Made by a program: the position numbers and the translations under genes. A stretch of 64,000 bases of DNA. Origin: Raillietiella orientalis (Eukaryota). Location of the stretch: the NCBI GenBank assembly GCA_036172245.1, contig JAYWIR010000026.1, positions 1-64,000 of the forward strand. The letters run 5' to 3'. Under the pieces are notes generated by a model, which had not been told where the DNA came from, did no database searches, and saw only the letters and a program-made list of their open reading frames with translations. Below, piece by piece: positions 24,901 to 53,798 of this stretch (position 1 is its first letter; each line of letters begins with the position of its first letter).

Positions 24901-25002
24901 CGGAACTTGCTAGAAAAAGGTTCCCATCGGTACTTTCACACCGGTCAAAGAGACCACAGCAGAAAAAGCCGCTGCGCTTCCGAAGAGGTCGGGTCCGCAA
25001 AG

Positions 25003-26467: not shown

Positions 26468-28553
26468 GACGTCACCGCAGTGAGTGGACGTGTTTTTGTG
26501 GAGCTCCCGAAAACCGTTTTTTTCGCGGGTGTTTGTGGTGTTTTTTGAGCGGTTGTTCCTGAGCAAAAATGCCCGAGGACGACGCCAACACGGCCTAGGG
26601 GGGCGAACGAGCGTCGTCCCCCCAACCCATGGATGTGGGCGCCATCTTACCCACAGATTCGTCCCCCGCCCTGGCGAGGGCTTGGAGCGCGGTGGTAGCG
26701 GCGCCTGCGCCACCCCCCGCAGAGGAATAGCGGGCGTATATGGCCGACGGATACAACCCGGCCCTACTGTATAAGGTAGGTGGGCTTTATTCTCCCGCGA
26801 TGTTGAGAACGTTTGCCGCGGAATTCAAAAAACTGAAAGTGCCGGAAGAAGAAGTTCTCGGCCTTTCCGTTCGCAGTGGCGGTCAGCTAGTCGAGCTGAA
26901 CTGCAGAACTGCAGGAATGACTCAGCAGTTGCTGAGATGCCCGGTGACCGTGAACGGGAGAAGGATCTTCCCGTTTACTGCCGACAAATCGATCGTCATC
27001 CACCTGACCGGGGTGACGATGCGAATGGCGAAAAATGCCGTTAGGCAGGAACTGGAAAAGTACGGGACCGTCCACGGTCTGTGGGCTAAGCCGAACACCC
27101 TGGGCTATACTAAGGCGTTCAGTGGCTATGCCGCCGCGCGTGTGACAGTCCGCGAGGGTAGTGGTTTACCCCACCGACTTCAGGTCGATGAAGAATACAT
27201 TGATCTGTGGTACATAGGAAAACCCAAATTTTGCGGAAACTGCGAGACTACAGGGCACCTTAAACGGAGGTGCCCCAACATCGTGTGTCTACGCTGCGGT
27301 AACAAGGGCCACGTAAGAAAGGTGTGCCCTCTTCGTTTTGCTTCCACTCCTGTTGGCAACAAGAGAACAGAGTCGCCACAGGAACCGGACAAACAGGATC
27401 CCCAATCGAGTGAAACCTCCCAGACAGGCGAGATATCGACGCCAGTGGAACAAAAACCGGAGGAGAGCGAAACTGTCGCCGAAAACAGTTGGCAGTTGGT
27501 GAAAAAGGAGAGCAAAGGGAAAGGTTGGCAGTTGTAGTGGCGAGCGAAAGCTCAGTTGCTGCGGTTCCGAACGATAGCGCGCCAGTTGCCGCTATCGAAT
27601 CGGTTGTTACGTCACCCGACTCGCCAACAGGCGGCAAAATCCGTGATGACGTGGAACGCATCTCTGATGCAAACTTCGCGCAAGCCGCGGAAGAGTTGGC
27701 TGCCTTCCTGAGGCAGCCCGTCAAGGCCGAGAAGAAAGCCTTTCGACGCCCGGCTACGGCAAAAGACCCGGAAACCTCCGAGACTGACGCCGAAAGCGGG
27801 AACTCACCTTCCGTTGGCTTGCCGACAAGAAAACATAAAAATACAACAGGAGCTCGTAGGCGTGCTGTCACCTCTCAGGAAGAGGTCGAAATGGCATCTG
27901 ACAGCGAGGAAGAGTCCATGTGCGTTGCACAATGCGACTCCGTGCCTGAGAGCATCCATTACGAACTGTTAACACAGTCCACGGCCAACGGAGTGAGCGA
28001 TGCTCCTGAACACTCCAACGACATGGACCCGGAACACCCGTCTTCTGAACAGGAGGCGGTTTCTACCACCCCACCATAACAACACCATTGCGTGGACTCG
28101 CCTCCTCTAGCGGCTTGCGAATAACCTGTTGGAACGTCAACGGGTTGAGCAGCGACGGGAAGAGGCGAGACGTAGCCGCCATTCTGCGAGACTTCGACCT
28201 GGCCCTACTGCAAGAGACTCACGTGCTCACAACAGAAGCAGGCCAGGATTTCGAAAGAATCACAGGAGGGCGACTACTGTGGAGGAACGGAACAGACTAC
28301 TGCGCAGTGGCCTTTCTGCTGAAGCCGGCCGTCGAAAACTCTCTGCGTAGCGTTCGCTTCGACGGGGACGGTCGAGTTGGACAGCTTGTTCCCAAGTGGT
28401 CTGATTCGATCGACCTCGTTGTGACGAACAGATACGCGCCAGTGAGCAACCACGGGGCCGAGGAACGCACTGCGTTTTTCGAATCCCTGCGGTGAGACTG
28501 GCTGGCTGAAGCAGGCGTACGGAAAGCGCACCTCATCGCGGGAGATTTCAATC
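26468..28553 (+). mobile_element. Family D LINE 5' half: 5' UTR, ORF1 (26569-28079, disrupted) and APE up to GDFN
   Basis: GGACGTGTTTTT at 26486; GYNPALLYKVG, CGNCETTGHLKRRC, CLRCGNKGHVRKVC, FAQAAEELAAFL; APE CWNVNGL..LQETH..YAP..HLIAGDFN. Confidence 0.9.
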
Positions 28554-31500
28554 GAGTGCGGACGTGTTTTTCTTCGCTCTCGTCTCCGTGCTTTCATCCT
28601 CTTCATCTTGGCGTCGTACATTTTGACGACGATGTCGACCCAACTCAAAGCTACTGAAGTTGGAGGAACAGCATCCGGATCTGCAATCGCGGAACCGACG
28701 GCCGCCTCCACTTCGTCTTTCTCGCCAATGGAGAGGAGTTTTGCTGACGTTGCTGCCACAGCAGCCGTCAAACGAAAACCACTCGACGAGTCGGAGTTGC
28801 GGGAATACGTAGCCCAAGGTTATAGACCTGCTCTCCGATATAAGGTGAGTGGCTTTCTTTCTGCGCGCGACGGAAATCAGTTCAACGATGAACTGACCCG
28901 TGTTGGCGCGCGGGAGGACGACCTTCTCGCCATTATGCCCGTAAAAGACATGGGCTATTTCAAGGTGCGTAGCAAAGACGCTGCACTTGTGCAACGCTTG
29001 CTGCGCACCCCGTTGTCGATCCGTGGCCAGAAGGTCTTCCCGGCCGCCATGGACGACTCATTTGTGGCGGAGATTTTCGACATCGAGACGGAAATCTCCG
29101 ATATTGATATTCGGAACGCGTTGGCAAAATTCCCCACGGTCCATGAGCTGTGGAGGGTGCGTAGCAACCTCAAGGACTTCCCGTCCATACACAGCGGAGT
29201 CGCTGGAGTCCGGCTTACCATGCCGGACCGCTGTCTGCTGCCCACCAAACTACAGGTGAAAGACACGGTCGTTCACCTGTGGTTCGTGGGAAAAGTAAAA
29301 ACGTGCGAGCAATGCGGGAAGGAGGGGCATTGTTTGGATAAATGCCCCTCTGGAAAATGCCGTTATTGCAAACTATCCGGGAACCAATTGAAAACTTGCC
29401 CGGATCTTTTGCGAAAAAAGGCAGCCGCGGAGCTTCATCGTAAGAAACAAAGCGCGGATAAAAAGAAAAACTCTGCGAAAGACCTGGAGACCCCACGGTA
29501 GAAATTCCGAAAAAACGCGAGGCGGAATGTCGCCCCAAAGCAGCAGGAAACCTCGCACGCGAAGCCCTGCGCTCCCCCTCTCGCGGCAAGGAAGCCGCAA
29601 AAGAAAGGGTGCGGGGAATCCGGGGCAATGGTAAGTCTCCCTAGGCGCAATAGCTGTCCTCACCAAGCACGCCCGGCTCTTTCGGAGTTCGAGCAACCGG
29701 CGGGGACGTCAATGGACAACGGCGGTAAGAACACTTCCAGTACCGTCAGATCCATTCCTTCACCTCCTGCAGTGGCTGAGAAGCTTAAATCCGGTAAGAA
29801 GGGTTGTGCCGTGTCGACTTCGAAAGTCGGCAAAAAAAAATCCGTGTCGCGATCCAACACCGCGAAAGCGAAGAAAAATCTCACGCCGTCGCAGTCGGAG
29901 AGCAAGCTCTCGACTGGCGCGGATGCCATGCCAACGAAGGGATTAAAAGCCCTTCCGAAAGCAGCGTCCATGTCGAGCGTGTCGAAGCCATCCAAAGTGC
30001 TCCCGTCCAAAGACAAGGATGGCATCAAAGATGGCAATGGAGCACAATCTCCATTTACGGCGCCACGCGAAGTGAGGAACCGTAATGAAGTAAAGAAGAC
30101 TTCAGCAAAGGTCCCTCGTGCAACTGCGCGTGAGCACGCTGAAAACGCGCGCGCCGGGAAAGTAGCCGTCACCAAAAGCGATGCTCAGGAGACGGAAAAA
30201 GACAACAGGACAGCAGTCAATCCAGCAGAACCTGTCACTACTTCGCGGAAGGCCGAAACCCGATCGAACATGCGCCGGTCGGACTCCAAAATGGATGCCG
30301 TTCCGATCACCGAGACGAGGACAACTCGTTCAAAAGCGTGTGCGCGCCGATCAAAAGTAGGCAGCCAGGCAACGCTCGCCGCGAAGCAACGGTAAGTCTC
30401 CACGAAACCCGACGGGATTAAGCCTGGCGTGGAGGCATTACATGCATGCAGAACGACGGAGGACGGTGGCGACCGTCCCCTCCAGTCAGTCGTGCTGCTC
30501 GCCGTCTGCTCGCCGGATAAAGCGAGCAAAAAGCCGCCACCTTCCCAGCAGTAATGCGGGGAATCGCATCTTCTCGTCGTCTGTCCGTAACTTCTTGGAA
30601 CGTGAACGGACTACAAAACGACAAGAAGAGGCGATTAGTAGCCAACGCCCTGCGCCCCTTCGACCTCGCGCTCCTGCAGGAGATTCACGTAATCTCCGAC
30701 GAGCAGGCAGCCGAAATCGAGGAGCGCGCAGGCGGAACGCTACATTGGCGGTGCGGCGGCGCACACACGTGCTGCGTCTTGTTCCTCGTAAGAGGAAAAA
30801 TGGCGGAAGCGGTGCGTAGTGTTCGTTTCGATGACGACGGGCGGATAGGCCAGCTTGTCATCAAGTGGTCCGAGTCCATCGATCTCGTCGTTACGAACGT
30901 CTACGCGCCGAGTGGCTCTCGCTACCTCGAAGAAAGAGTAGCTTTCTTTGGTGAGGTGCAGAGCCACTGGCTCAACAACTCCGGCTTTTAACTGGTGCAC
31001 CTCGTCGCTGGGGACTTTAACGTCCGCCTGCTCTCCGACGATTGGAGCAGCCCGAGGGAGCGCGCGCTGCCCATCGAGATGTGCGCGTCAGTGCACGCCG
31101 CCAAATTGATGGTCAGCGAACCTGGAATGGAAAGATCGCTCGATTACGTTTTCCTCGATGAAAACCTGCATTCGCGTGTGGGTAGGAGAGGAAGATTGTT
31201 GACTAGGCTTTCTGACCACCACAGGTTGGGGTTTTTGATCCTTCCGCCAGGCAGGGGGCCTCCGTTGCAAAACTGGAGGATGCAGGCGGATTGGCTTAGC
31301 CAACCGGAGGCTGCGGAGCGTCTTCGTGGATACCTCCGAGGCTTTGCCATTCAAGAACTTGCGGACTGGGACGATCTCAAAAGATCTGTCCGCGAGTTCT
31401 GCTGTCAATTCCCCTTGCAACGGCTTCCACGCGGTTTCGGAGAGGGCGTGGCCAACAGTAGAGACTTTCTGCAGGACCGCACGTTTTCGAGACGCGCGGA

Positions 31501-32531
31501 TGTCGGGCGTCTCGCAGAGTACAAGGCGAGGGCCGAGCGCCAGGTCTGGCAGTCCGGAGCAGCATGCCTGTTGGACGACAAGTGCCAGGAATGTTCGGCC
31601 CCAGCCGAAGTACGCCGCATTGTGAGACGCTACTACTTCTCGCTGTACGCGGAATCCTCGACGGAGGATATTCTCTCTGAGATACTCCTGTCTCAGGATG
31701 CTCGTGTTGTCGGCGAGGAGGAACGCGAACGCCTCAACGAGCCCTTCACGGCGGATGAATTTTCGTCCGCCGTCGCTGGGCTGAAGTGACGAAAGGCGCC
31801 ATGCGAGGATGGGCTCCCTGGAGAGTTTTATCAGTGCTTTGAAGTGGAGCTCATTCCCTTGATGCTGAGACTCGCGACGCTGATGAGTGAATCCGGGAAT
31901 GTCCCGGATTCCTTCCGCTCAGCGAAGGTGCGTCTCCTGCCGAAAGGCGGAGACTTGCGTCAACTTAACTACTGGCGTCCGATCACCTCTGTGTACTCGG
32001 ACGTCAAGTTGTTTTCCAAACTGTGGGTCGCGCGGTTAGGAAGTATCGCGGAATCTGTGGTGAGCCCGGAACAAACCTACGCGGTTCCGGGACGATCCAT
32101 GGAGGCGAACATCCTTTTCTCGCGTACATGGATGCATTTGCAGGAAGTTGTTGCGCAGGAAAGCCAGGCTGCTGCGAAAGTCACTGCCGCAGGCAAGGAG
32201 AACAGGCGCCGATGGCAGGAGGGAACGCCAGGCGCCTTGGCGTTAGCGGTCGATTTCCACAAGGCGTTCGACTGCGTAACCGAGTAGCTGCTTTTGGAGC
32301 TTATGGAACGCCTTGGGTTCCCGGCGCAACTCCTGCTGTACTTGCGCGCGTGCTGCCGCCACATGCTAACATGCATTACTTCCAGCGGCTGCCGCGTGTA
32401 TGGTATTCCCGTTCGTAGGGGCATCCAACAGGGCGACAGCTTAAGCCCGTTGCTCTTCTGCATCTTCTTAGAGTTGGTGCTAAGAGCATACAGGCTGACG
32501 CTGTCTCACTTGCCAAGCTCCTGCTCGGGAA
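28554..32531 (+). mobile_element. Family B LINE copy B1, left part (5' UTR, ORF1 28632-30554, ORF2 to just before YADD)
   Basis: Near-identical by eye to the reverse complement of 39145-43114. TAATG junction at 30552-30556; APE and RT motifs; several premature stops. Confidence 0.92.
28560..28571 (+). promoter_or_regulatory. Putative internal promoter motif GGACGTGTTTTT (also at 521, ~6401, 26486, ~43097, 45533, 53817, 56112)
   Basis: Present within ~25 nt of every intact 5' end, in otherwise unalignable UTRs of families A, B and D. Function is inferred. Confidence 0.5.
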
Positions 32532-33871
32532 GTCGCGAGCCCACCGTGAGCAGCGACGACCGGGACTTCAAGAAGGCGGCGGAAGAGTTGGCAGCCATGC
32601 TTTAGCAGCCTCACAAGGCCCAGAAGAAGGCCTTGAGGCGTCCGGCTGAGGCGAAAGGACCGGAGACTTCCGAGTCCGAAGCTGGCAAGGCTCCGGCTGT
32701 CGCTTCCCCGAAGCGCAAAGCCGGCCGCAAGGTAGGCAACCCGCGGCGCTCCGCACCTCCACCGGCGGAGGAGGAAATGCGGTCGGACCACGACGACGGG
32801 GAGGCGATGTCCGCGAGGTCTCGCGACTCCTCGCCGGAGACGTCCCTGGCCAAGCAGGATCCTCCAACCACCACCAGAACCACCGACGGACCGCCTCCTT
32901 GAGAGGAAAAGCCCGTCGCAATGGATACACAACTCCCGCCTGCTGAACAGCAGGCGGAGGACGGTAAGCAAACACCATAAAGCCACCAACGCGAGGACTC
33001 TTCTCCTGCCGGCGACTGCGCGTAATCTGTTGGAACGTCAACGGGTTGCGCGACGACGGCAAGAGGAGAGAAGTGGCCGCCAGCCTGCGGGACTTCGACC
33101 TGGCGCTTCTGCAGGAGACGCACGTTCTCCACGCAGGGGAGGCTCAGGAAATCGAACGGATCGCAGGCGGGCGGCTCGTATACCAAAACGGGAGAGACCA
33201 CACCCGCGGTGTGGCTTTCATGCTGAAGCCAGCCGTCGTTAATGCGCTGCGCGACGTGCACTTCGACGGGGAAGGTCTAATCGGGCAGCTTGTTGCCAAG
33301 TGGTCCGACGCGATCGACCTCGTCGTGACCAATGTGTACGCGCCCGGCACGAGCCACAGGCGCGGGGAACGCACTGCGTTCTTCGAAGGCCTGCGGCGAG
33401 ATTGGCTGGCCGAAGCAGACATGCGAAAGGCGCACCTCATTGCCGGGGACTTTAACGTCCGCCTGCTGGCAGGTGCGCCCGACATTCGCGCACAGCTGGT
33501 CAACGAGATGTGCGCTGCCATGCACGCGCGCAACTTGTTGGCCGGTGACGCCGGGACGGAGACGAGGATCGACCACATGTTCCTCGACAACCACCTGTGT
33601 TCGCGGGTGGGAAATCGAGGGGCAGTGCCATCCGAACTTTCCGACCATCCTCGGCTCGTGCTAGAAAGACACCCGCGCGGTAGAAGTCCACCCTCTACAG
33701 CGTGGCGTTTGCCAGGGGACTGGTTGCGCCTCGCAGGAGCAGCGCAACATCTTCGCTCGTTCCTGCAAGGCTTCCATCTGCAGTCGCTCGCGGACTGGGA
33801 CGACTTGAAGAGCTCAGTCCGCGAGTTCTGCGACCAGTTTCCCCTGAACCGTCTCCCTCCAGGTTTCGGCG
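32532..33871 (+). mobile_element. Family C LINE (5'-truncated), left part: ORF1 C-terminus and complete APE
   Basis: FKKAAEELAAML; ORF1 stop at 32978-32980; CWNVNGL, LQETH, NVYAP, AGDFN, IDHMFLD, SDH, ending LPPGFG. Confidence 0.9.
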
Positions 33872-34076
33872 TTGTCACCCGGGTACGCCCCGGGCGTTTA
33901 TTAATAAACTTTACATGCGTGGTACAAGGCCTTACCACGGCCGTAAACACAGGACCTGTCGGGACACCGGGACGCAGCCCGGCGTGGCACTCCCCGACAG
34001 CGAAGGGGGATGGGGATAAGACAAAAGGTAAAATAAAAAGAAACAAACAAAAAGAAGTTGGAGGGCAGAGAAGGGA

Positions 34077-37000
34077 TCACTGTTCGCTGTGGAGAGGGCC
34101 CATCCGTCGAACGAAGCCCTCGAGGTCAGTCCTCATATTCCCCAGTTGGGGCCATCCGGCAGCTCTTCGCAAGAAGCGTTGGGCATATGGGATGACATCC
34201 CTCGCGTGTTGACCCACTCCTTCCTTGTTGGTGTCGCTCCACGCCGCCACGATGCCTCGGACGCAGCACAAGGCTGCAAGGGCTGCGGCTGGCTGCAGGG
34301 CGTCCTTCACGAAGAGGGGCCGAAGAACGTCTCTAGGGGAACTGCCCGTTGGGAGACCGAGGATCGTCCCAAACCGTTCCCAAAGGGGACGAAGGGCAGC
34401 ACAGTCCACAATAAGGTGGGAGAGCGATTCCCGCTCTCCGCACCTGACACACGCAGGATCCACAACTCCTCTTGTCCAGTGAGAGCGGCGTACGTTGAAG
34501 GGTAAACTCCAATGCAACAACAGCAACGCCGACTCTTTCCACTTAAGAGGCAGGATCCTGGATTCCTGAAGAAGCGACGGCCACTTCAGCACATCCATAG
34601 GGATGGCCAGCAGCTCGCTCCATCTTCTTAGTCCTCGCGGCTGGACGCTCGGGGTCGTGGCGTCTGCCAGTTCTCCTGTTGTCCAGCCGCTGATCAACTT
34701 TTCGCGTCCCTCGATGCAGCAGGAGACTTGCCACCTTGGCGTACGGCTGCTGTGAAGTGCCCTCTTCAGGAAGGGCAGCGCCGTAGCTAGACAGGTCGTC
34801 TCTGCCCACATGCATCTTGCTGGAATCTCCAGGAGATTCCGCAGCGTGCAGCGGGCGTAGGGGCTGCATCGGAGACGATTCCACGTCTCGTGGCTTGTCT
34901 TGTTAACCACTGCCCACGTTCCAATATTTTCCTCCAGCCAGGCGGGGGAGTTGGCGGGGCAGCAAACCATCCAGCTGTTCTCCTTGGCCAATGTTGCCAT
35001 GCGCCCGAGCAGTAGGCCGCATCTTCGCATCTTCCGGCCACGGCTCAGAAGAAAAGACGCGAGTCCATCGCACCGGGACACACGGTTGGCCAGGAGGCGG
35101 GCCGGAGTGCACCAAGGGGTGTTCCACATCTTTGCTGCGATGGCGAGGGTTCGCCACCGCAGCTGCTTTTCCACGCGCTCCAGCGTCAGCAGGCCAAGAC
35201 CGCCGCCCCGACGCGGAGCGCACAAGTCCTTCAGTGGGACTCGGGGCCTCCCCTTGCCCCAAAGGGCGATACGGAGGAGGTCCCTCGTCCTTTTCTTGGA
35301 TTCCACGGTGGGAGCGCAAACAAAAAGCAAGGGGCGGAGGATGGGGGCCGCGAAGGCGTTCCAAACCGCGGCCCGTTCCGGCAAGTGAAACTTGCCTTCC
35401 AGGAACGGGCCGATCGCCGTCTGCACTTTTTGGAGGCAGCTGGACCACGCTTCCGCAGGGGAGTAGTCCCCCAACGGCACACCAAGGTACTTGAAGCACC
35501 TTGCCGTGGGGATCCCCAGACGGACCCAGTCCTGCTGCCCTGCCCACGCCGCACCTATTGGCACAACCGACGACTTCGCCCTGTTAACCTGCAGTCCGGT
35601 CCCGCGGCTGAGCAGATCGAAGAAGTCTCCGACCGCCTTCGCCGGGATGGACATTGGCAACAAGAGCAGAAGATCATCGGCGTACGCTGCTACGGCGGGC
35701 GTGCCGGGGCACGAGCTCGGCAAGGGGGCCAAAGTCACCCTGTACGCTCTCAGCAATAACTCAAAGTAGGTGCTAAAGAGCAGGGGGCTGAGGCTATCGC
35801 CCTGCCTTATGCCCCGCCGCACCGGCACGCCATACACCTTCTGTCCACTGAAACAGACGGTAATCATCGCATTCCGCCAGCAAGAGCGCAGGTAGGAAAT
35901 CAGGGAGGGTGGGAAGCCCATGCGACCCAGGAGCTCCAAGAGGAGTTCCTGGTCTACACAGTCAAACGCCTTGTGGAGATCGACTGCGAGCGCTAGGGCC
36001 CCCTTCCCTGCCCGGGGGTCCCTTCCCAGCCCGGCTGGCGGCCCCAATGTGGGGTTGCCGACTTTCCCTATCCCTTTCTTCTCTCTTCTCTGCTGGTGCA
36101 CCCATGTGCTTGCGAAGAAGAGGTTGGCATCCATACTTCGACCGGGAACAGCATAAGTCTGCTCCGGGCTAATTACGGATTCTGCCACCTGCCCCAGACG
36201 CGAAGCCCATAGCCCTGCTATCAACTTGGCGTCCGTATTCACGATTGTGATCGGACGCCAGTTCTTTAAATTCCTGAAGTCTCCCCCTTTCGGAAGGAGC
36301 CTCACTCTGGCTGACCGAAACGAGGCGGGAACATCGCCTTCATCTCGGATCAGCCTGATCAACTTAAGCAGCAGGGGTGCCAGCTCTTCCGCGAAGCTCT
36401 GAAAGAACTCCGCAGGCAAGCCGTCTTCCCCTGGAGCTTCACGCCTCTTGAGCCTTTTGATACCGGCGAGAATTTCGCCGGTGGTAAAAGGCTCGTCGAG
36501 GATTTCCATCTCCTCCTCCCCTATTGCCGGGGTGCCATCCGGAAGCAAGCGTCGAGAGGCGTTTCGATCCGGGGGCTCCCTGGCGTAAAGGGAGGAATAA
36601 AAACTCCGCTCGAGATGCCGTACCGACGCCAGGGACGAACATTCGCGGCCCTGGCCGTCCAGCAAGCTGGCAGACCCGGATTGCCAGGCTCGGCGTTCGG
36701 CCCCGGCGCGGTACTCGGCCAGGCAACGGATATTAGAGGTTCTCTCGTACCTACGAGCCTGTAAATAGGCCCAATGGTTGCGAGCACCCTCGCCGAATCC
36801 GGGGGGCAGGCGATCCAGGGGGAACTGCTCACAGAACTCGCGGACCGATTCCTTAAAAAGGTCCCAGTCCTGGAGATTCCGGAGCGTGACGCCTCTAAGG
36901 TATTCGCGAAGGTGTTCCTTCGCACCTGAGAGTCGCGTCCAGTCATCCGGCAGACGCCAATCCCTGGATGGCGGTCCTTTGTCGCGAGGCCGCATCTCGA

Positions 37001-37213
37001 AAATTAGCCGGGAATATTCCGACAACGTCGACACAACCCTCCCCCGTTTGCCGACCCGTGAACACAGGTCAGCGTCCAGGAAGACGTGGTCGATGCTGCG
37101 GACCATTCCTTTCTCACCCGCGAACAAGTTGCGCGCACGCATGGCGGCGCACAATTCGTTCATCGCGTTCACTTTTGTTTCCGGCTCACCTGTTAGCAGG
37201 CGGAGATTGACAT
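34077..37213 (-). pseudogene. A1 ORF2, downstream part (APE C-half, RT, zinc finger): an uninterrupted ~1045-codon frame separated from its N-terminus by B2
   Basis: IDHVFLD, APGEDGLPAEF, WRPITIVNTDAK, DLHKAFD, GIRQGDSLSPLLF, AYADD, FKYLG, CVRCGERESLSHLIVDC. Confidence 0.93.
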
Positions 37214-37526
37214 TTATCACCCGGTCACGCCGGGGCGTTTATTAATAATAATAAACTGGTCAGGGACAATGTCCCCAACCAAGAGAACGACAGAGAACAT
37301 AGAAAAATTACCGGCACGCAGGCCTGTTAAACAAACCGCTCGCAGCGTGGGGGGAATGAGGGGAAACAAACAAAAATCAAAAACTGGAGGGAAGGGTAAC
37401 GGGTTTTTGGTTAGGCTCCGTACTCACGGGGATTTATACGATGAGCACCTAAAATGTTGCGGAGCCTATGGGGACGCGGGTGTAAAAAGAAAATACAAAT
37501 TTAGTTTATGGAGGGTAGGGCAATGA

Positions 37527-40500
37527 TCACCGGGTTGGCCGCTGATGAGGGTGTGTAAACCGGCGGTGTATTGCGGCGAGATTCCTCTTTGTCTCCTCTG
37601 TCAAATGAGGCCATCTAGCGGATGCTCCCATGTAGAAGGATGCTTTGCTGATTACTTCTTGGTGCTGTCCGTTGATTACCAACGCCTGGCGGACGGAAAC
37701 TATCGCGCGTATGCAACCGATGGTTGCAATCCTTGCGCTTAGTGAAAGCCCGCTCGGCGTGAAGAATCGTCGCAGCAAGTCTCTTGCGGTGTCCACGGGA
37801 TGCAATAGTGCCGTTGCCAGCCTACGCCACAGTCCTTGTAGGACACCGCAGTCCAGAAGTAGGTGCGGAATCGACTCCGTCGATCCGCACCGAACGCAGT
37901 TCCCAGACGCAAGTCCCCAGGAGTCACGATGCCAACGCTCGTTGCACTGAAAACCCCAGTGAACGAAAAGCAGCACGGCTTGTTTCCAAGCAAGGGGGAG
38001 CAGCGAACTGTCAATACACTGTGGAGGGACTACAAGTTCTTCGGGGGTGACAGCAAGTTCTTCTGACCATCGGAGGAGTCCCTTTGCAGTAACACGAGGA
38101 GTGGCGGCGTCCGCCAACTCACTCGTCTTCCAGGCGCCAAGGATTTTGGTTTTTCCCGCTATCGTGCAGGAAACCTCCCACCTCGTCGGTTAGTAACTGT
38201 CGTTTCTTGCCCTGAGTGCAGACAGCGCTGCGGCAAGAGGCGTGGCAGCCAGGGTAGAAAACTTCACCTAGTCCTGCAGTACTTCTTCCAAGGATCGTGG
38301 AAAAAATTGGCGCAGGGGGCGAAGATCTTCAGGGCGTATTCCTTGGAACGCCGCCCAGGATTCAACAGACTCCTGCCGCCAAGCTTCAAAGTTCATTGGG
38401 CGGCAGGAGATCCAAGAGTGTGCTTCCAGAAGTGCGGTCAACTGCCGCAATGGAAAACCGAAACCCCGCTTCCTGTATTGAGTGCCCGGCAAAAGCGAGA
38501 GAAATCTTCCGCTGCCGGCGCATCTCCGCAGGAAAATGCGAGCTGGCACACACAGGGGGGATGTCCATAGCTGGGCACACAGTGCCAGCAGTCGGAACTG
38601 CACCTGCAGTCCGATTCGCTCCATTGTCAGGATACCCAAACCAGCATCCCGACGCGGAGCTGACAAATCTTTAAGGCGGATCCTGGATCTCGCCGGACCC
38701 CAGAGAGCGTTCCTGAGCTGGCGCTTAGCCCGCTGTTTTGCCGCATAGGGGGGGTCCAAAACAAAAAACAGGGGACGGAGGAGGGGGCCACAAAGGTGTT
38801 CCAAATAGTCGCCCGTTCCTGCAAGGTAAACTTGCCGTTAAAGAACGGGCTGATGGCCAACTCTGCTTTCTGAAGACAGTCCGCCCACGCTTCGGCTGCG
38901 CCGAAAGCGCCCAAGGGAACGCCAAGGTACTTAAAGTACCCGCCCGTGGGGATCCATAGGCGGATCCAGTCGGACTGCCCCTCCCACGACGTACCCACAG
39001 GAACGACCACGCTCTTCTCTCTGTTCACGCTCACGCCCGCTCCCCGACGAATCAGGTCGAAGAAATCCTCGACACTGGACGCCGGGGTGGACATGGGGAG
39101 CAGAAGAAGCAGGTCATCAGCGTAGGCGGCCACGGCAGGCGTTCCCGGGCAGGAGCTCGGCAAGTGAGACAGCGTCAGCCTGTATGCTCTTAGCACCAAC
39201 TCAAAGAAGATGCTGAAGAGCAACGGGCTTAAGCTGTCGCCCTGTCGGATGCCCCTACGAACGGGAATACCATACACGCGGTAGCCGCTAAAAGTGATGC
39301 AGGTTAGCGCGTGGCGCCAGCACGTGCGCAAATACAGCAGGAGTTGCGCCGGGAACCCAAGGCGTTCCATAAGCTCCAAAAGCAGCTTCTGGTTTACGCA
39401 GTCGAACGCCTTGTGGAGATCGACCGCGAACAACAAGGCACCTGGCGTTCCCTCCTGCCGTCGGCGCCTGTTCTTTTTGCCTGCGGCAGTGACTTTCGCA
39501 GCAGCCTGGCTTTGCTGCGCCACAACTTCCTTCAGCTGCATCCATGTACGCGCGAAAAGGATGTTCGCCTCCATGGATCGTCCCGGAACCGCGTAGGTTT
39601 GTTCCGGTCTCACCACAGATTTCGCGATTCTTCCTAACCGCGCGACCCACAGCTTGGAAAACAACTTGACGTCCGAGTTCACCAAGGTGATCGGACGCCA
39701 GTTGTTAAGTTGGCGCAAGTCTCCGCCTTTCGGCAGGAGACGCACCTTCGCAGAGCGGAAGGAATCAGGGACATTCCCGGATTCACTCATCAGCGTCGCG
39801 AGCTTAAGCATCAAGGGAAAGCTCCACTGCAAAGCACTGATAAAACTCTGCAGGGAGCCCATCCTCGCCTGGCGCCTTTCGTCTCTTCAGCCCAGCGATG
39901 GCGGACGAAAATTCATCCGCTGTGAAGGGCTCGTCGAGACGTTCGCGTTCCTCCTCGCCGACAACACGAGCATCCTGAGACAGGAGTATCTCAGAAAGAA
40001 TATCCTCCGTCGAAGATTCCGCGTAGAGCGAGGAGTAGTAGCGTCTCACAATGCGGCGTACTACGGCTGGGGCCGAACATTCCTGGCACTTGTCGTCCAA
40101 CAGGCATGCTGCTCCGGACTGCCAGACCTGGCGCTCGGCCCTCGCCTTGTACTCTGCGAGACGCCCGACATCCGCGCGTCTCGAAAACGTGCGGGCCTGC
40201 AGAAAGTCTCTACTGTTGGCCACGCCCTCTCCGAAACCTTGTGGAAGCCGGTGCAAGGGGAATTGGCAACAGAACTCGCGGACAGATCTTTTGAGATCGT
40301 CCCAGTCCGCAAGTTCTTGAATGGCAAAGCCCCGGAGGTATCCACGTAGATGCTCCGCAGCCTCCGGTTGGCTAAGCCAATCCGCCTGCATCCTCCAGCT
40401 TTGCAACGGAGGCCCCCTGCCTGGCGGAAGGATCTCAAACTCCAACCTGTGGTGGTCAGAAAGCTCAGTCAACATTCTTCCTCTCCTACCCACACGCGAA

Positions 40501-41117
40501 TGCAGGTTTTCATCGAGGACAACGTGATCGAGCGATCTTTCCATTCCAGGTTCGCTGACCATCAAGTTGGCGGCGTGCACGGACGCGCACATCTCGATGG
40601 GCAGCGCGCGCTCCCTCGGGCGGCTCCAATCGTCGGAGAGCAGGCGGACGTTGAAGTCCCCAGCGACGAGGTGCGCCACTTGGGAGCCGGAGTTGTTGAG
40701 CCACTGGCTCTGCACCTCACCAAAGAAAGCCACTCTTTCTTCGAGGTAGCGAGAGCCACTCGGCGCGTAGACGTTCGTAACGACGAGATCGATGGACTCG
40801 GGCCACTTGATAACAAGCTGGCCTATCCGTCCGTTGTCATCGAAACGAACACTACGCACCGCTTCCGCCATTTTTCCTCTTACGAGGAACGCGACGCCGC
40901 ATGTGTGTGCGCCGCCGCACCGCCAATGTAGCGTTCCGCCTGCGCGCTCCTCGATTTCGGCTGCCTGCTCGTCGGAGATTACGTGAATCTCCTGCAGCAG
41001 CGCGAGGTCGAAGGGGCGCAGGGCGTTGGCTACTAATCGCCTCTTCTCGTCGTTCTGCAGTCCGTTCACGTTCCAACACGTTACGGACAGACGACGAGAA
41101 GACGCGATTCCCCGCAT
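37527..41117 (-). pseudogene. B2 ORF2 (APE-RT-zinc finger, ~1200 codons), frameshifted
   Basis: Track ORFs 39804-41117, 38627-39862, 38268-38804 and 37527-38117 are consecutive pieces carrying all APE/RT motifs and CVRCGSTESIPHLLLDC. Confidence 0.9.
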
Positions 41118-43036
41118 TACTGCTGGGAAGGTGGCAGCTTTTTGCTCGCTTTATCAGGCGAGCAGACGGCGAGCAGCACGACTGGCTGGCGGGGACGGTC
41201 GCCACCGTCCTCTGTCGTGCTGCATGCATGTAATGCCTCCACGCCAGGCTTATCCCCGTCGGGTTTCGTGGAGACTCCGCGTGGCTTCGCGGCTAGAGTT
41301 GCCTGGCTGCCTACTTTTGATCGGCGCGCACACGCTTTCGAACGAGTTGTCCTCGTCTCGGTGATCGGAACGGCATCCATTTCGGAGTCCGACCGGCGCA
41401 TGTTCGATCGGGTTTCGGCCTTCCGCGAAGCAGTGACAGGTTCTGCTGTATTGACAGCTGTCCTGTTTTCGTTTTCCGTCACCAGAGCATGCTTTTGGTG
41501 ACGGCTGCTTTCCCGGCGCGCGCGTTTTCAGCGTGCTCACGCGCAGTTGCACGAGGGACCTTTGCTGAAGTCTTCTTTACTTCATTACGGTTCCTCACTT
41601 CGCGTGGCGCCGTAAATGGAGATTGTGCTTCATGGCCATCTCTGAAGCCATCCGCGTCTTTGGACGGGAGCACTTTCGATGGCTCCGACACGCTCGTCAT
41701 GGACGCTGCTTTCGGAAGGACTTTTAATCCCTTCGTTGGCATGGCATCCGCGTCAGTCGAGAGCTTGCTCTCCGACTGCGACGGCGTGAGATTTTTCTCC
41801 GCTTTCGCGGTGTTGGATCGCGACGCGGATTTTTTTTTTGCCGACTTTCGAAGTCGAAACGGCACAACCCTTCTTACCCGATTTGGGCTTCTTAGCCACT
41901 GCAGGAGGTGAAGGGATGGATCTGACGGTACTGGAAGTGTCCTTACCGCCGTTGTCCATTGGCGTCCCCGCCGGTTGCTCGAACTCCGAGAGAGCCGGGC
42001 GTGCTTGGGAAGGACAGCTATTGCGCCTAGGGGGACTTACCATTGCCCCGGATTCCCCGCACCCTTTCTTTTGCGGCTGATCTGCCGCGAGAGGGGGTGC
42101 GCAGGGCTTCGCGTGCGAGGTTTCCTGCTGCTCTTGGGCGACATTCCGCCTCGCGTTTTTACCGAATTTCTGCCGTGGGGTCTCCAGGTTTTTCGCAAAT
42201 TTTTTCTTTTTATCCGCGCTTTGTTTTTTAAAATGGAGCTCCGCGGCTGCCTTTTTTCGCAAAAGATCCGGGCAATTTTTCAATTGGTTCCCGGATAGTT
42301 TGCAATAACGGCATTTTCCGGAGGGGCATTTATCCAAACAATGCCCCTCCTTCCCGCATTGCTCGCACGTTTTTACTTTGCCAGAGAACCACAGGTGAAC
42401 GACCGTGTCTTTCACCTGTAGTTTGGTGGGCAGCAGACGGCGGTCCGGCATTGTAAGCCGGACTCCAGCGACTCCGCTGTGTATGGACGGGAAGTCCTTG
42501 AGGTTGCTACGCAACCTCCACAGCGCATGGACCGTGGCGAATTTCGCCAACGCGTTCCGAATATCAGTATCGGAGATTTCCGACTCGATGTCGAAAATCT
42601 CCACCACAAATGAGTAGTCCATGGCGGCCGGGAAGACCTTCTGGCCACGGATCGACAACGGGGTGCGCAGCAAGCGTTGCACAAGTGCAGCGTCTTTGCA
42701 ACGCACCTTGAAATAGCCCATGTCTTTTACGGGCATAATGGCGAGAAGGTCCTCCTCCCGCACGCCAACACGGGTCAGTTCATCGTTGAACTGATTCCCG
42801 TCGCGCGCAGAAAGAAAACCACTGACCTTATTTCGGAGAGCAGGTCTATAGCCTTGGGCTACGTATGCCCGCAACTCCGACTTGTCGGGTGGTTTTCGTT
42901 TGACGGCTGCTGTGGCAGCAACGTCAGCAAATCTCTCCATTGGCGAGAAAGACGAAGTGGAGGCGGCCGTCGGTTCCGCGATTGCAGATCCGGATGCTGT
43001 TCCTCCAACTTCAGTAGCTTCAAGTTGGGTCGACAT
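41117..43036 (-). pseudogene. B2 ORF1 (RRM-like region, two zinc knuckles, basic disordered tail), two frameshifts
   Basis: MSTQLEATEV.., CEQCGKEGHCLDKC, CRYCKLSG(N/H)QLKNC; pieces 41753-43045, 41479-41865, 41117-41482. Confidence 0.88.
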
Positions 43037-43581
43037 CGTCGTCAAAATGTACGACGCGAAGATGAAGCGGATGAAAGCACGGAGACGAGAGCGAAGAAAA
43101 CCACGTTCGCACTCGATTGAAATCTCCCGCTATCAGGTGAGCCTTTCGCACATTGGTATCCGCCAGCCAGTCGCGCTTCAGGGTTTCCAGCAGCCTGGTG
43201 CAGTCGCGGTAACCCTGTTTGCCGCTGGGGCCATACACGTTTGTGACGATTAGGTCGATCGAGTCGTACCAGCTGAGAATCATTTGACCGATCCGACCGT
43301 CGTCATCAAACCGCACGCCCTTTACGGCAGCGTCGATGGCCGGCTTCACGAAGAACGCGACCCCGCAGGTGTTGCGGAGGCCGCATCGCCAATACAACCG
43401 ACCCCCCGCGATCGTCTCGATTTCCTGGGCGTCTGCCGCGGTGATCACGTGGATCTCCTGCAGCAGCGCCAGGTCGAGCTCACGCAGGGTGTCGGCTGTA
43501 TCTCGCCTGTTGCGTCGTCGCGCAGCCCGTTGATGTTCCAACAGGCCGCGCGAATCCGACGGCGACTGGTGAGCCCAGGTG

Positions 43582-45456
43582 TTAGTCCAGGGAAAACGGC
43601 GATGCGGCGTCCGCCACCTGCTGGGACGGGACGCTAGGTGGAGGGGGAGGAGGGACAGGTACTGAAGGCACCTTTTCCTCCTCCTCCATCGGTGCCGGCG
43701 CGTCGGCCGGATCACCCGCACGTGGAGTCGCGCCTACCTGTTCGCCTTCCTCCATAGGTTCGGGCTGCTCAGGTTTCGCGACTGCGGGGAGGACTTCACC
43801 CCCCTGCTCTCCCTCCTCCATGGGGGTGGCCGACTCGACGGCTTCCGGGCGTAAGTATTCCCTCTCCGGGATTCCCACGCTGCCGCTTCCTTCCGGTTTC
43901 TCCTCCTCGCTGGTGGAGGGGAGGCGCCTCCTGGGTTTCTGGGACTTGCGTCCCGACTTCCTGGGGGGTGCCTCCGAGGAGAAGGATCCGCTTCCGGCCC
44001 CCAGGTCGCACTCACCTGCGGGGGCCTTCTTCGTCGGAGCCGACCTGCGTACGCCCTTGCGCGAAGGGGTTTCGCGCTTGGCGAGCGTTGCTGCGAGCTC
44101 CTCCGCCGCTTTCTCGAAGGCCGCGTCTTCGCCAGCGGCGACCGTTGCCGCGGGCTGCTCCGCGACCTTATCGATCGCGGCTTCATCGTTCACGGCGAAC
44201 GTTGCCGCGGGCTCCTCCGCGACTTTATCGAGCGCGGCGTCCTGGCTGTCGGCGCGCGAGTCTCGCGTCTCACCCTCTCCACGTAGATTGGGCTCGTCCA
44301 CGCGAGTATTCATCGCGTCCGCATCAGCTGTTCCGCGAACATTCCCGCGGGCGGACTCGGCAGGAACGGCTAAGCGTTCCAGTGCCACCGAGCATTCGCG
44401 GAGTTTTTTTTTTGAAAGCGGCGCGGCTTTTTTCTTGTTGCCGGCAGTTTTCTTTACCGAATTTTCTTCTATCATCACTTTCTTTTTTTTCTCTTTTCTG
44501 GCCTGAACCAGCTGCCAACCCTCCTCCATTCCCGCGTCCACGGGAGCTATTTCCTCCGACGTATGTACGGGAGGAAGGGAGGCTGGCAGTTGGGAACGGC
44601 CATTTTCGCGAGCTGGTCTTTCTACCAGCTTTCCACGTTTTCCCTGCGCCTTTTTGGAGGCAGGGGGCACCGGGGTGGGGCGCTTGGGGCACACGCGCCG
44701 AACGTGACCCTTTTCGCCGCATAGGTAGCACACAATGTTCGGACACCTTTTTCGTAGATGCCCTACTGCATTGCAGTAGCCACAAAATTGGCGTTTTCCC
44801 ACGTACCAGAGGTCCACCGCTTCTTGGCAGACCTCCAGCTTGTGGGGAAGCGCACCACCCTCTTTTACTGTGATACGCGCCGCAGCTTGACCCCCGAAAA
44901 GGCTATTGTAGCCTTGGAAAATCGTGGACTTCGGCCACAACGCGTGCACTTCTCCGTGCTCTTGTAGCTGTTCTCGAACCGCTGACCTCGTCATGCGACT
45001 TGAGATCCCAGTGAGATGGACCACCACCGAGCGGTCCATCGTTATCGGTAAGATCTTCCGACCATCAACGATCAGCGGGTCGGTGATCAGGTGTCGGGCC
45101 AAGGTGATATCCTTGCATACCACCTCGACCCGCTGCCCGCCGCTGAGGACGCAGAGGCCGTCGAGATCTTTTTCAAAAATATTGGCGTTCTGCAGCGCCT
45201 TCGTAAAGGCGCGTGCAGTTCGCCCATCGAAAAGGTTGCCTACCTTGTAGACTAGCGAGGGTTTATACCCCGCTTTCTTGTAGGCTTCCATCTCGGCCAT
45301 GGCTTCCACGCTAGGCGCGGCCACCATGGCGCTCCAGGACCTCGGCGTCGCCGGGGACGATTCCGGGGCGGATGCCCCTGATCCAGTAGGCTGTGGGGAC
45401 GAACAAGCCTCCATCACGCCTACTTCCATCGCGGTGTCCTCTGGCAACGCTGCCAT
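43582..45456 (-). CDS. A1 ORF1 protein, 624 aa, Tx1/L1-type nucleic-acid-binding protein
   Basis: Open frame from MAALPEDTAMEV; LWYVGKRQF-CGYCNAVGHLRKRC-PNIV-CYLCGEKGHVRRVC; low-complexity C-terminus. Confidence 0.9.
   Translation of the reverse strand: MAALPEDTAMEVGVMEACSSPQPTGSGASAPESSPATPRSWSAMVAAPSVEAMAEMEAYKKAGYKPSLVYKVGNLFDGRTARAFTKALQNANIFEKDLDGLCVLSGGQRVEVVCKDITLARHLITDPLIVDGRKILPITMDRSVVVHLTGISSRMTRSAVREQLQEHGEVHALWPKSTIFQGYNSLFGGQAAARITVKEGGALPHKLEVCQEAVDLWYVGKRQFCGYCNAVGHLRKRCPNIVCYLCGEKGHVRRVCPKRPTPVPPASKKAQGKRGKLVERPARENGRSQLPASLPPVHTSEEIAPVDAGMEEGWQLVQARKEKKKKVMIEENSVKKTAGNKKKAAPLSKKKLRECSVALERLAVPAESARGNVRGTADADAMNTRVDEPNLRGEGETRDSRADSQDAALDKVAEEPAATFAVNDEAAIDKVAEQPAATVAAGEDAAFEKAAEELAATLAKRETPSRKGVRRSAPTKKAPAGECDLGAGSGSFSSEAPPRKSGRKSQKPRRRLPSTSEEEKPEGSGSVGIPEREYLRPEAVESATPMEEGEQGGEVLPAVAKPEQPEPMEEGEQVGATPRAGDPADAPAPMEEEEKVPSVPVPPPPPPSVPSQQVADAASPFSLD
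44080..44245 (-). repeat. In-frame 57-bp (19-aa) tandem repeat x3 in A1 ORF1
   Basis: DAALDKVAEEPAATFAVND / EAAIDKVAEQPAATVAAGE / DAAFEKAAEELAATL. Confidence 0.8.
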
Positions 45457-45558
45457 CGGACACCGACGATGTGCACGCACAAATCACTTAAGAAGAAAAA
45501 ACACTCGCTTTGCCACGCAGGCGGAGCGCAGGAAAAGCACGTCCTCTCTCCACAGCGG

Positions 45559-48544
45559 GGATTCGGCGAAGGGCTGAGGAACGACCGGGCATACCACCAC
45601 GCCCGTCTTTACTCTAGGACTCCCGACGTTCGACGCCTGGCGGAGTATAAAGCTGGGGCTGAGCGACAGACCTGGCAATCCGGGTCGGCCAGCTTGCTGG
45701 ACGCCCAAGGCCAAGAATGCTCAGCTCCGGCAAGAATAAACCGCATCCTGCGGGACTATTACTCCTCCTTGTACGCGCGTAGAACAACGGAGCGCGCCGT
45801 GGCGCAGCGCTTGCTGCCGCAAGGCGCCCCCGCGCTGCAGGAGGAGCAGGCACATCAACTCGAGGAGCCTTTCTCGATGTCGGAGATCGTCTCCGCCATC
45901 GGAAAGCTCCGAAAGAGGAAAGCACCAGGGGAAGACGGTCTGCCCGCGGAGTTCTACTAAGGCTTCGTGGCGGAGCTGGCCCCCCTGGTGCATCGGCTAT
46001 GCATGCTGATCCGAGAACAAGGGGACGTCCCCAAATCGTTCCGGTCAGCTAGAGTACGTCTTCTGCCGAAAGGAGGAGACAATCGCAACGTAGGCAACTA
46101 ACGTCCCATCACAGTAGTGAATGCGGATGCGAAGTTGCTTGCCAAGCTTTGGGCTGAGCGACTGGGACGGGTGGCGGAATCCGTGGTGAGTCCGTTGCAG
46201 ACATACGCTGTTCCAAGACGAAGCATGGAGGCCAACCTGTTCCTCGCCAGTACATGGTGCCAGTTGCAACAAGGCGAAGACCAGGGAGGTCAAGAGAATC
46301 CTGGATTCTCCTCTGACCAGGGAGGGGACGCCCTTCATGGAAGAGCCGCGCCCGGTGCCCTTGCGGTCGCAGTCGATCTGCGTAAAGCGTTCGATTGCGT
46401 CGACCAGGAACTGCTTCTGGAGCTCCTAGAACGCGTGCGATTCCCGGCCGTCTTCCGGGCTTACCTGCGCTCCTGCTGGCGCTTCGCTCTAATAAACATC
46501 TCTTTTAGCGGCCGGCACGTGTACGGCGTGCCGGTTCGGCGTGGCATAAGGCAGGGTGACAGTCTGAGCCCCTTGCTCTTCAGCATCTACTTCGAGCTGG
46601 TGCTGAGGGCATACAGGGAGACTCTGGCAACCCTGCCAAGCTCGTGTCCCGGCACGCCTGCCGTGTCGGCCTACGCCGACGACCTTCTGCTCCTGCTCCC
46701 CGGGTCCACCCCGGCGTCGGCGCTCGACGATTTCTTTGAGTTGCTGCGCCGCGGGACGGGCCTCGAGGTGAACAGAGAGGCATCTTCCATCGTTCCAACA
46801 TCACCACAACTTTTCAACCATACGGCGTGGGCCGGACGGCCGGACTGGATCCGCTTGGGGATCCCCACGGGCAGGTGCTTCAAGTACCTTGGCGTTCCGT
46901 TGGGGGACTTCTGCGTTGCAGAAACCTGGTCCGACCGTCTCCAAAAGGTGGAGTTGGCGATCGGCCCGTTCCGGAACGGCAAGTTTTACTTGCAGGAGCG
47001 GGCCGCGGTGTGGAACGCGTTCGCGGCCCCCCTCCTTCGCCCCTTACTTTTTGTTTGCCCCGCCCCTCCCATCATACAGAGACGGACGAAAGCCCTCTTG
47101 AGGACTGCCGTTTGGGGCACAGCGAGGTCGCGAGTCCGATTGAAAGACTTGTGCGCTCCACGCAGAAATGGTGGCTTGGGCCTCCTTACGTTGGAGCGCA
47201 TCCAACTACAGACAACACTTCGGAAGTTAGCCCTTGCGGCTAGCTTATGGATGACGCCATTGTGCGATCCGGCACGGCTCCTCGCCAGAAGAGCGACCGG
47301 CTGCGAAGGATTGTCCTCGATCCTCGTGGCCTACCAGCGCAGACTCTCCAACTGTGGCCATGATTTGCACTAGATGGTCGTCCTGATGAGGGAGAATACC
47401 TGGATCTCCTGCATCCCCTCGAACTGCACTGCCTGGCTTCAGGAGTCAGCTTCCGCGTGGGCTAAGATCAACGGCACGAGCGAGGCGGAATACAACTGCC
47501 TACGACGAGGACCGTACGCTCGACAGCCGCTGCAGGAGATTATCAACACGCCCCGGAAGTTTCTGTGGGCTTCTTTCAGCCCCCTTGCCCCCGTTCTGTC
47601 CTCCCTGAAAAACACTAGGAGCAGCAACGAGCTGGCATCGTGGGAAATGTCCTGCCTCATCTGAGGCAGGAAAAAACCTTCAAAGGCGTGGACGACTCGA
47701 GAGCTCACGGACGCTGCCACCCCGAGCGTCCCGCCTCACGGACTTGCGCGCTGGGGAGAGCTGCTCGCAATACATCCGGAGGAGGTGAAGTGGCCCCCAG
47801 CGTGTTGGGATTGCGGCACACTTCCGTTGAAGTGGCAGGAGACGGCGTTGCTATTTCTGCACTGGGGACTGTTAAGCAGAGCACGCCTGTCTCACTGGAC
47901 ACTGGGAAATGTGGATGCCCGCTGTGTCGAGTGCGGAGAAAGGGAAACCTTCCCGCATCTCACCCTCAAGTGTGTCGCCCTGGATGGACTCTGGAGTCGA
48001 ATCGCCCCACTCCTCCATCTTCCAGTAGGCTACCCTAAGGAAATTTACCGTCGCCTCTTTCTGCGTGACGGCCTGCGCACCGCTGCGTCTCTAGCAGTCC
48101 TCTGCTGCGTGCGCAGCATTGTGCAAAGGTGGCACGCCAGAAGAAGAAGCCCAAGATGCAAAGACGCCAACCACTGGACGACGATCTCTTTAGAGACGGC
48201 GACAAGGTGGCGTCTAGATTTCACAATAAAAACTAAACTTGACTGCATCCTCAACAGGATGCGGAGGACCGACCCAGGCACCCAGTGATCCCTTCCCTTC
48301 CCCCCCTCTCCCCATGCAACTGTTTGCTCCCTCGTTATCTATCTTTTTGTTTATTTTTGTGCTAGTTTTCCCTTCCCATGCGCCTCGGGAATGGACCTAA
48401 CCGGTCTATGCACCGGCAACCGACACGTCCAGCAAGGTGGTAGAACCCAGTGTTTTCCCACAGAAAAAATCTTTTTAAAGACTTTATTATCTAATTTTTG
48501 TAGAAAATTAGAATAATCAATGCCCCGGCATATCCAAGTGGCAA
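45559..48544 (+). mobile_element. Family C LINE, right part (linker, RT, zinc finger, 3' UTR)
   Basis: Resumes GFGEGLRNDRAY; DLRKAFD, GIRQGDSLSP, AYADD, CVECGERETFPHLTLKC; ends AATAATCAATGCCCCGGCATATCCAAGTGGCAAA. Confidence 0.9.
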
Positions 48545-53400: not shown

Positions 53401-53798
53401 CTGTGTCCGTGGCATCGTGGCGGCATGGAGCGACGCCAATAACGAAGGAGTGGGTCCACACGCGAGGGATGTCATCCCATACTCCCAACGCTTCATGCGG
53501 AGAGCTGCCGGATGGACCCAACTGGGTAAATATACGGACGGACCTCGAGGGCTTCCTTCGACGGATGGGCCCTCCTCACAGCGTTTAGTGATCCCTTCCC
53601 TGCCTTCCAACTTCTTTTTGTCAGTTTATTTTTTATTTTTTTGTTGTTTTATTCCCATACCCCTTCGCTGCTGAGGAACGCTACGCTGGGCTGCGTTTTG
53701 GTGTCCTGGCAGGTCGAGTGTATATGGCCGTGAGCAAGGCCTTGTACCGCGGATGTAGAGTTTTAACAATAAACGCCCCGGGCGTACCCGGGTGTAAA
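50454..53798 (+). mobile_element. A-type LINE 3' half starting at the GDF|N target site (right flank of B1)
   Basis: FN..LLTGEPETQVNAMNEL, IDYVFLD, SDH, RT motifs (YAND variant), finger; ends AATAAACGCCCCGGGCGTACCCGGGTGTAAA. Confidence 0.9.

Follow-up and report, generated by a model that had tools for sequence, protein, structure and literature searches.

A long interspersed nuclear element found at one codon spelling of the catalytic GDFN motif of other elements in a retrotransposon nest of Raillietiella orientalis

The 64-kb window analysed here (positions 1 to 64,000 of contig JAYWIR010000026.1, forward strand, assembly GCA_036172245.1, from Raillietiella orientalis) is, except for a GC-poorer stretch at ∼14–25 kb, a nest of decayed L1-like retrotransposons that lack long terminal repeats (non-LTR retrotransposons). 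One long interspersed nuclear element (LINE) in this nest, which we call B, stands three times at the same place in other LINEs, next to the codons for the catalytic Gly-Asp-Phe-Asn (GDFN) motif of their apurinic/apyrimidinic endonuclease-type (APE) domain. The occupied sites share one spelling of these codons and the readable empty sites have another. We think it probable, as a joint judgement on specificity, mechanism, the reading of wobble bases, and the by-product nature of the codon split, that B is a sequence-specific, APE-type (L1-like) LINE, known in its general kind but unusual in its target. The B endonuclease most likely reads the wobble bases of the motif, with the separation of hit from unhit elements as a by-product. 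The codon pattern is best read as a footprint of enzyme specificity and not as evidence of immunity.

Elements in the window comprise open reading frame 1 (ORF1), which in some families includes a CCHC knuckle, and ORF2, which encodes APE (PF03372), reverse transcriptase (RT, PF00078), and a C-terminal zf-RVT-like region. The full-length copy B2 (37214..43115, − strand, 5,902 bp) contains a 5′ untranslated region (UTR), ORF1, APE, RT, a weak zf-RVT match, a 3′ stem-loop, and a GATAA tail; its ORF2 is broken into three frames. Its APE matches PF03372 with an E-value of 6.7e-13 (49.3 bits, cutoff 24.5), and its RT, 3′ of the APE, matches PF00078 with an E-value of 5.4e-22. PF03372 is likewise found in copy B1, in hosts A1 and A3, in element C, and in X2527, a relative of the B group; PF00078 is found in the 3′ part of host A2 (2.1e-22) and in elements E and A4. 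Matches to zf-RVT (PF13966) stay below the cutoff of 27.5 bits, at 21 bits in B2 and 26.9 bits in E, and by tblastn this region is homologous among the window families. The best solved relatives of the B APE are chains of the human L1 endonuclease (2v0s, 2v0r, and 1vyb; E-values 6e-6 to 2e-5).

Each of the three insertions follows a host interrupted at GDFN. Host A1 (26500..28552, +; 5′ limit approximate) supplies ORF1 and the N-terminal APE up to the motif. Its site, GGA GAT TTC AAT (GGAGATTTCAAT), lies at 28541..28552 (+), and the left copy of the target-site duplication (TSD), ATTTCAAT, at 28545-28552. B1 (28553..32531, +) follows, with the 5′ UTR, ORF1 (ATG at 28632), APE, and the first part of RT; a further element, C/E, interrupts it at 32531. 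The 3′ segment of the same B copy, B4 (48546..50453, +), resumes 19 nt past the B1 stop in B2 coordinates and leads into the right TSD copy, ATTTCAAT (50454..50461, +), and the 3′ part of the host, A4 (50462..53798, +), which is A2-like (84–91% nucleotide identity in most 200-nt bins). In the second host, the 5′ part of A2 (43116..45561, −; ORF1 with a CCHC knuckle and the N-terminal APE) ends in the same spelling, GGA GAT TTC AAT (GGAGATTTCAAT; 43116..43127, −; left TSD copy 43123->43116). B2 stands between this site and a right TSD copy, ATGTCAAT (37206..37213, −), that has one mismatch to the left copy. The 3′ part of A2 (33872..37205, −) then continues with APE from the codon after GDFN, RT, zf-RVT, a 3′ stem-loop, and a GACAA tail, in a frame open for ∼1,042 codons. 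The third host, A3 (53799..56104, +), consists of ORF1 and the N-terminal APE, and its site, GGA GAT TTC GAT (GGAGATTTCGAT; 56093..56104, +), differs from the other two by one A>G. It is followed by B3 (56105..57955, +), a B copy represented by its first 1,851 nt and 90–98% identical to B1 and B2.

All three hit sites continue directly into the B 5′ end, CGAGTGCG(G/A)ACGTG. These 5′ junctions are identical to the base, and every B insertion is in sense orientation. The 3′ junction of B2 into A2 reads ...CCGGGTGATAA ATGTCAAT CTCCGCCTG, and that of B4 into A4 reads ...GGGTGATAA ATTTCAAT CCATGCCTG; in both, a copy of the duplication stands after the GATAA tail and the host frame resumes with the codon after GDFN. 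The TSD ATTTCAAT can be counted as 7 or 8 bp because the B tail ends in A. In B2, a stem-loop (CCCGG/CCGGG) lies 5′ of GATAA, and the A family closes with similar stem-loops. All B ends within the window lie at GDFN sites, save the joint at 57955/57956 between B3 and B′, a diverged B-like element (57956..61634, +; identity to B of ∼75% across the ORF1 region and 87–90% across ORF2).

Identity profiles across the junctions indicate that B inserted site-specifically and independently at least three times, into two lineages of hosts. In 200-nt bins around the 5′ junctions, the B parts are 90–98% identical, whereas the host parts reach 46–72% (A1 versus A2), 39–72% (A1 versus A3), and 57–88% (A2 versus A3), with a jump in identity at the junction. 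Around the 3′ junctions, the B parts are 78–96% identical and the host parts mostly 84–91% (these bins are 33 nt off the true junction, which is immaterial at this scale). A tree built from 460 nt 5′ of GDFN, leaving out the motif itself, groups A1 with C (support 96), A2 with A3 (100), and B1, B2, B′, X2527, and X9055 (another, decayed relative of the B group) together (100). On these sequence comparisons, the three B hits are independent. An origin from a single insertion that was copied, by segmental duplication or by retrotransposition of a host-plus-B composite, or from B spread among hosts by gene conversion, is in our view very improbable. It draws some support from blastn, where single alignments run through the junctions, and from the chimeric host A1/A4 (see below), which indicates that recombination does operate in the nest. 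Against it, host identity in every pair is far below B identity and changes at the junction, A1 and A2 fall in different clades, and the B copies sit at different depths of one nest. Segmental duplication and composite retrotransposition are rejected on the identity profiles.

The junctions suggest the following model. The B endonuclease would make its bottom-strand nick at GGAG^ATTTCAAT and its top-strand nick probably 7–8 bases on, after AAT, within DNA encoding the catalytic Gly-Asp-Phe-Asn of other LINEs’ endonucleases. B would then be copied in, in sense orientation, by target-primed reverse transcription. Recognition would occur at the nucleotide level and include the wobble bases, which may count for more than the neighbouring bases. 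Substrates would be limited to elements with the motif spelling GGA GAT TTC AAT; those that spell it GGG GAC TTY AAC, B included, would not qualify. The synonymous split would then be a by-product of B specificity and lineage history, the unhit spelling being the common one, favoured by GC content at third codon positions and probably ancestral. The model supposes that the unhit sites were, like the hit ones, exposed to B.

Six unhit APE sites in the window are readable, and all are of the other spelling type. Three of them read GGG GAC TTT AAC (GGGGACTTTAAC): the site of B1 itself (31010..31021, +), that of C (33445..33456, +), and that of X2527 (2527..2538, −). B2 carries GGG GAC TTC AAC (GGGGACTTCAAC; 40650..40661, −), X9055 carries AGG GAC TTT AAA (AGGGACTTTAAA; 9054..9065, −), and the damaged codons of B′ (GCTGACACTTCAAC; 60372-60385, +) are of the unhit kind and not hit. 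A preliminary description of this DNA had given the interrupted sites as GGA GAT TTC (A/G)AT and the uninterrupted ones as (G/A)GG GAC TTY AA(C/A), and the reanalysis reproduces both readings, at 28541-28552, 43127->43116, and 56093-56104 for the former and in B1, B2, C, X2527, and X9055 for the latter. It had also counted three synonymous differences between the motif of B and its target; B2 differs from it at 3 of 12 bases and B1 at 4 of 12. A further decayed APE (X14k, 13795-14710, −) is 68% identical in nucleotides to X2527 over 872 nt. The alignment of the two has only two internal gaps, of which the larger is a 10-nt deletion in GDFN that removes bases 2–11 of the 12-mer (deletion region 14142-14162). 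This deletion could be the repair scar of an endonuclease cleavage, or it could be chance.

Occupancy follows spelling closely. Counted by copies, three of three sites with the hit spelling are occupied versus none of the six others (Fisher, 1/84 = 0.012); counted by lineages, the figures are two of two versus none of four (Fisher, 1/15). The window has two exact GATTTCAAT sites, and B occupies both, together with the A3 site that carries one mutation. Moreover, A1 and A2 have the same wobble base at all four GDFN codons, versus a background of 18 of 43 codons, which is the trace expected of a nucleotide-specific enzyme that picks its substrates. Matches to GGNGAYTTYAAY at 7855, 15299, and 20837 (all −) have no APE context and were set aside as chance.

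The hit copy A1 has a composite ancestry. Its N-terminal APE (28049-28552) is C-like, with 75% nucleotide identity to C and 62% to A2, and its identity to C stays at 65–83% when scored in 60-nt bins. The last 13 nt ahead of the insertion point and the whole 3′ part (50462-53798) of the A1/A4 host are A2-like. At 44 sites A1 agrees with C but not with A2 or A3, and none of these lies in the last 18 nt; at 20 sites A1, A2, and A3 agree with each other but not with C, and five of these lie in the last 13 nt. By these alignments, B1/4 lies in a chimeric host, with a change of parentage 13–19 nt upstream of the site. The A1 spelling may have arrived by recombination with a breakpoint in this interval, a plausible place because the stretch is the most conserved between families. 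Alternatively, the target may have been present by chance in a C-like element that B then chose.

Several observations weigh against this model of B specificity. The synonymous codons separate hit from unhit elements throughout the window, as the preliminary description had it, yet the next codon, with a non-synonymous difference, separates them equally well: the hosts have CTC or CCA there, and all unhit copies have GTC. Directly after the duplication, the two known host 3′ flanks begin with C, and the five unhit copies all have G at this position. The window by itself cannot tell which bases decide: it holds three events in two host lineages, and the unhit copies all come from other lineages or sub-lineages. 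B2 could have come already inside A2, and we infer that the unhit sites were exposed to B. The GDFN codons are identical at all four positions in C, B1, and X2527, versus 12 of 30 in the background (p ∼0.03), which codon usage alone does not predict. Beyond the window, at least two contigs of run X1 (see below) carry a B-like 3′ tail followed by a flank that does not resemble the GDFN host (loose end at 37212), so B or a sister family may also occupy sites of another kind elsewhere. The wobble bases could be passengers if B recognised some other feature of the host lineages, such as the next codon (CTC versus GTC), the preceding GCG, or a longer stretch pairing with a read-through B RNA. The C-versus-G difference after the duplication speaks for this, as do a near-perfect 12-mer, GGAGATTTCAAC, at 15310 (−) and ATTTCAAT at 15408 (−), both of which lie outside any APE and are empty. 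We nevertheless regard passenger wobble bases as rather unlikely. The host flanks differ right up to the 12-mer (CTCATCGCG versus CTGATAGCG on one side, CCATGC versus CTCCGC on the other), and the 12-mer is the sole block common to hosts that are 62% alike. In an 85-codon alignment (255 sites 5′ of the junction), eight sites have a state that all hits share and no unhit copy has, and three of the eight fall within the 12-mer. As to the preceding codon, the G that the hosts carry at its third base is also present in two of five unhit copies, X2527 and X14k.

A different account would place selection at the synonymous sites themselves. Attacks by B would select for re-spelling of GDFN in its targets, and B would keep a non-target spelling that spares its own copies. 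The preliminary description had proposed two parts of this arms race, self-immunity of B and resistance of C by synonymous change. The target lies in catalytic codons, which leaves the host element silent change alone, and the sister elements A1 (hit) and C (unhit), the only within-clade contrast, share none of the four GDFN wobble bases although they share 37 of 57 elsewhere (0.35^4 = 0.015). The spelling common to C, B1, and X2527 points the same way and is mildly odd, but the avoidance of B needs no single alternative spelling. Codon usage offers a simpler source for the spelling of B. In B ORF2, asparagine is AAC in 91% of cases, aspartate is GAC in 52%, and glycine is other than GGA in 68%; from these values, three differences from the target have p ∼0.32, at least one mismatch is expected with ∼99% probability, and a perfect self-match has p ∼0.007. 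It is the host spelling that is unusual (p ∼0.02 by the codon usage of A2 itself). Moreover, B shares its GDFN spelling with X2527, X9055, and C, so the non-target spelling is not seen as derived in B and was probably inherited, not acquired. No change need then be assumed, and self-immunity of B, though possible, is improbable and finds no support here. The resistance of C fares no better, since the sole sister contrast lies in a chimeric host whose parentage switches just upstream of the site. The identity of the hit sites is also a matter of ascertainment, B itself having selected the hit copies, and the sample is three versus six. The preliminary description had itself warned that its sample was small and phylogenetically non-independent, and hit status is indeed confounded with lineage. 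Taken together, we judge the arms race unlikely. A fuller version, in which B does not tolerate silent change, spellings are ‘susceptible’ or ‘resistant’, attacks remove susceptible master elements, the resistant spelling is frozen in four lineages, and the deletion near 14150 is a repair scar, seems to us more doubtful again. Enzyme specificity acting on inherited spellings remains our preferred reading.

Comparisons beyond the window are in part informative. The contigs of run X1 are short and contain 53% of sampled window words; runs X2 and X3 contain next to none. Among the matches listed, one X1 contig joins 37204 to 43115, skipping 5,910 bases that correspond to B plus one TSD copy, with six letters that fit either side. 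This is the form of an empty A2-like site, a weak hint given that the shorter side is 30 letters only. A protein search with A2 ORF2 returned a single close relative, 67% identical and located on a JGI contig of 2.9 kb, the rest being distant LINEs without clade names, and a protein atlas returned generic RT/APE clusters only. A metagenome scan for the B 5′ end found nothing, and one for APE relatives gave 597 pattern matches, of which tblastn confirmed none. An ORF spanning the first junction (28446-29498) has no protein match at E ≤ 1e-5 among proteins of 193–615 amino acids. In-frame fusion of B ORF1 to the host APE frame was considered and discarded: the two frames differ, and the APE frame runs into stop codons within the B leader.

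The nest is four deep (A1/4 ⊃ B1/4 ⊃ C/E ⊃ A2 ⊃ B2), with a junction signature of its own at each level. B1 (to 32531) and B4 (from 48546) are a single B copy split by C/E, with a 19-nt target deletion. The 5′ half of the splitting element, C (32532..33871, +), comprises the end of ORF1 and the whole APE and is cut at 33871 by A2; its 3′ half, E (45562..48545, +), comprises RT, zf-RVT, and the 3′ end. A2 lies antisense within C/E, flanked by a 7-bp duplication, CGCCGAA, at 45568->45562 and 33871->33865. Of 1,849 compared positions, private substitutions number 34 in B2 and 54 in B1 (p ∼0.04, normal approximation), fewer in B2, which agrees with the order of nesting. B was probably active both before and after the arrival of C. 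The GDFN site of C is empty, whereas A2, nested in C/E, was hit; this contrast would hold only if B2 entered A2 in place.

Other features of the nest concern its joints and shared signals. The A2 junction in C/E falls at the codons of a conserved ...PxGFG stretch 3′ of APE, and C/E itself lies in sense orientation within the RT of B. The A4 3′ tail (GGGTGTAAA, ending at 53798) directly abuts the 5′ leader of A3, which places two hosts head to tail with no spacer (53790-53830). After 1,851 nt, B3 gives way to B′, which begins at a point ∼70 nt inside the leader of B (57940-57975); either a deletion has joined two elements here, or a sister family has inserted. A 5′ leader motif, GGACGTG(T/C)TTTTC (28553-28575, 43093-43115 (−), 45520-45545 (−), and 53815-53835), is common to the A and B families, as is a 3′ end in which AATAAA is combined with a GC stem-loop and a short tail rich in A. 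These shared ends suggest that the two families are transcribed, and recognised by the reverse transcriptase, through common signals. The stretch at 14000-25000 has a GC content of 44–48%, versus 55–62% elsewhere, and shows no LINE domains that pass the thresholds applied; the stretch may be a non-repeat flank or a different type of sequence within the nest.

Among site-specific LINEs, the use of safe, multicopy host targets such as ribosomal DNA (rDNA), small nuclear RNA (snRNA) genes, and telomeres is known. Here, the safe harbour would be the catalytic-motif codons of rival LINEs, so that one selfish element lives by disabling others. LINEs such as Tx1L, Keno, R1Bm, and TRAS/SART resemble B in having an APE, one exact site, a fixed orientation, and a short TSD. 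They differ from B in their targets, which are rDNA, snRNA genes, telomeric or simple repeats, and a DNA transposon (Tx1D, the target of Tx1L), while that of B is the catalytic endonuclease codons of another LINE. The available text of one account names the Tx1 and R1 clades as the target-specific groups among APE-encoding LINEs (PMC4640811). We liken B to these clades by its features and not by clade placement, its closest solved structures being those of the human L1 endonuclease. A LINE aimed at the endonuclease codons of another LINE was not described in the literature searched, most subscription journals being outside its coverage.

Two further systems resemble parts of this arrangement. 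In green algae, the L1-type Zepp and ZeppL LINEs form nests as new copies land in older ones (PMC8226300), and Zepp elements form nested clusters (PMC3446292). Like the window, these are GC-rich LINE nests that grow by insertion into existing copies, a likeness of architecture and not of phylogeny; the portions of these accounts available to us make no mention of a fixed nucleotide target, of one family targeting another, or of codon spelling playing a part. Homing endonucleases and inteins, different in mechanism, resemble B in the choice of target. According to the accessible part of one paper, they target the catalytic-motif codons of indispensable proteins, whose genes can respond only by silent change, and PI-SceI and PI-PspI cut fully re-spelled targets, tolerating silent changes at all wobble positions (PMC3159444). 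Homing endonucleases are, like B, selfish elements aimed at conserved catalytic-motif codons, but they are wobble-tolerant, while B, in a small sample, is found at one spelling only. They are also LAGLIDADG enzymes, while B would combine an APE nickase with reverse transcription, and its victim is itself selfish. If B truly discriminates silent spellings, it would provide a natural retrotransposon endonuclease with ∼12-base specificity and a system in which conflict between elements can be measured at synonymous sites, in contrast to the wobble-tolerant homing endonucleases.

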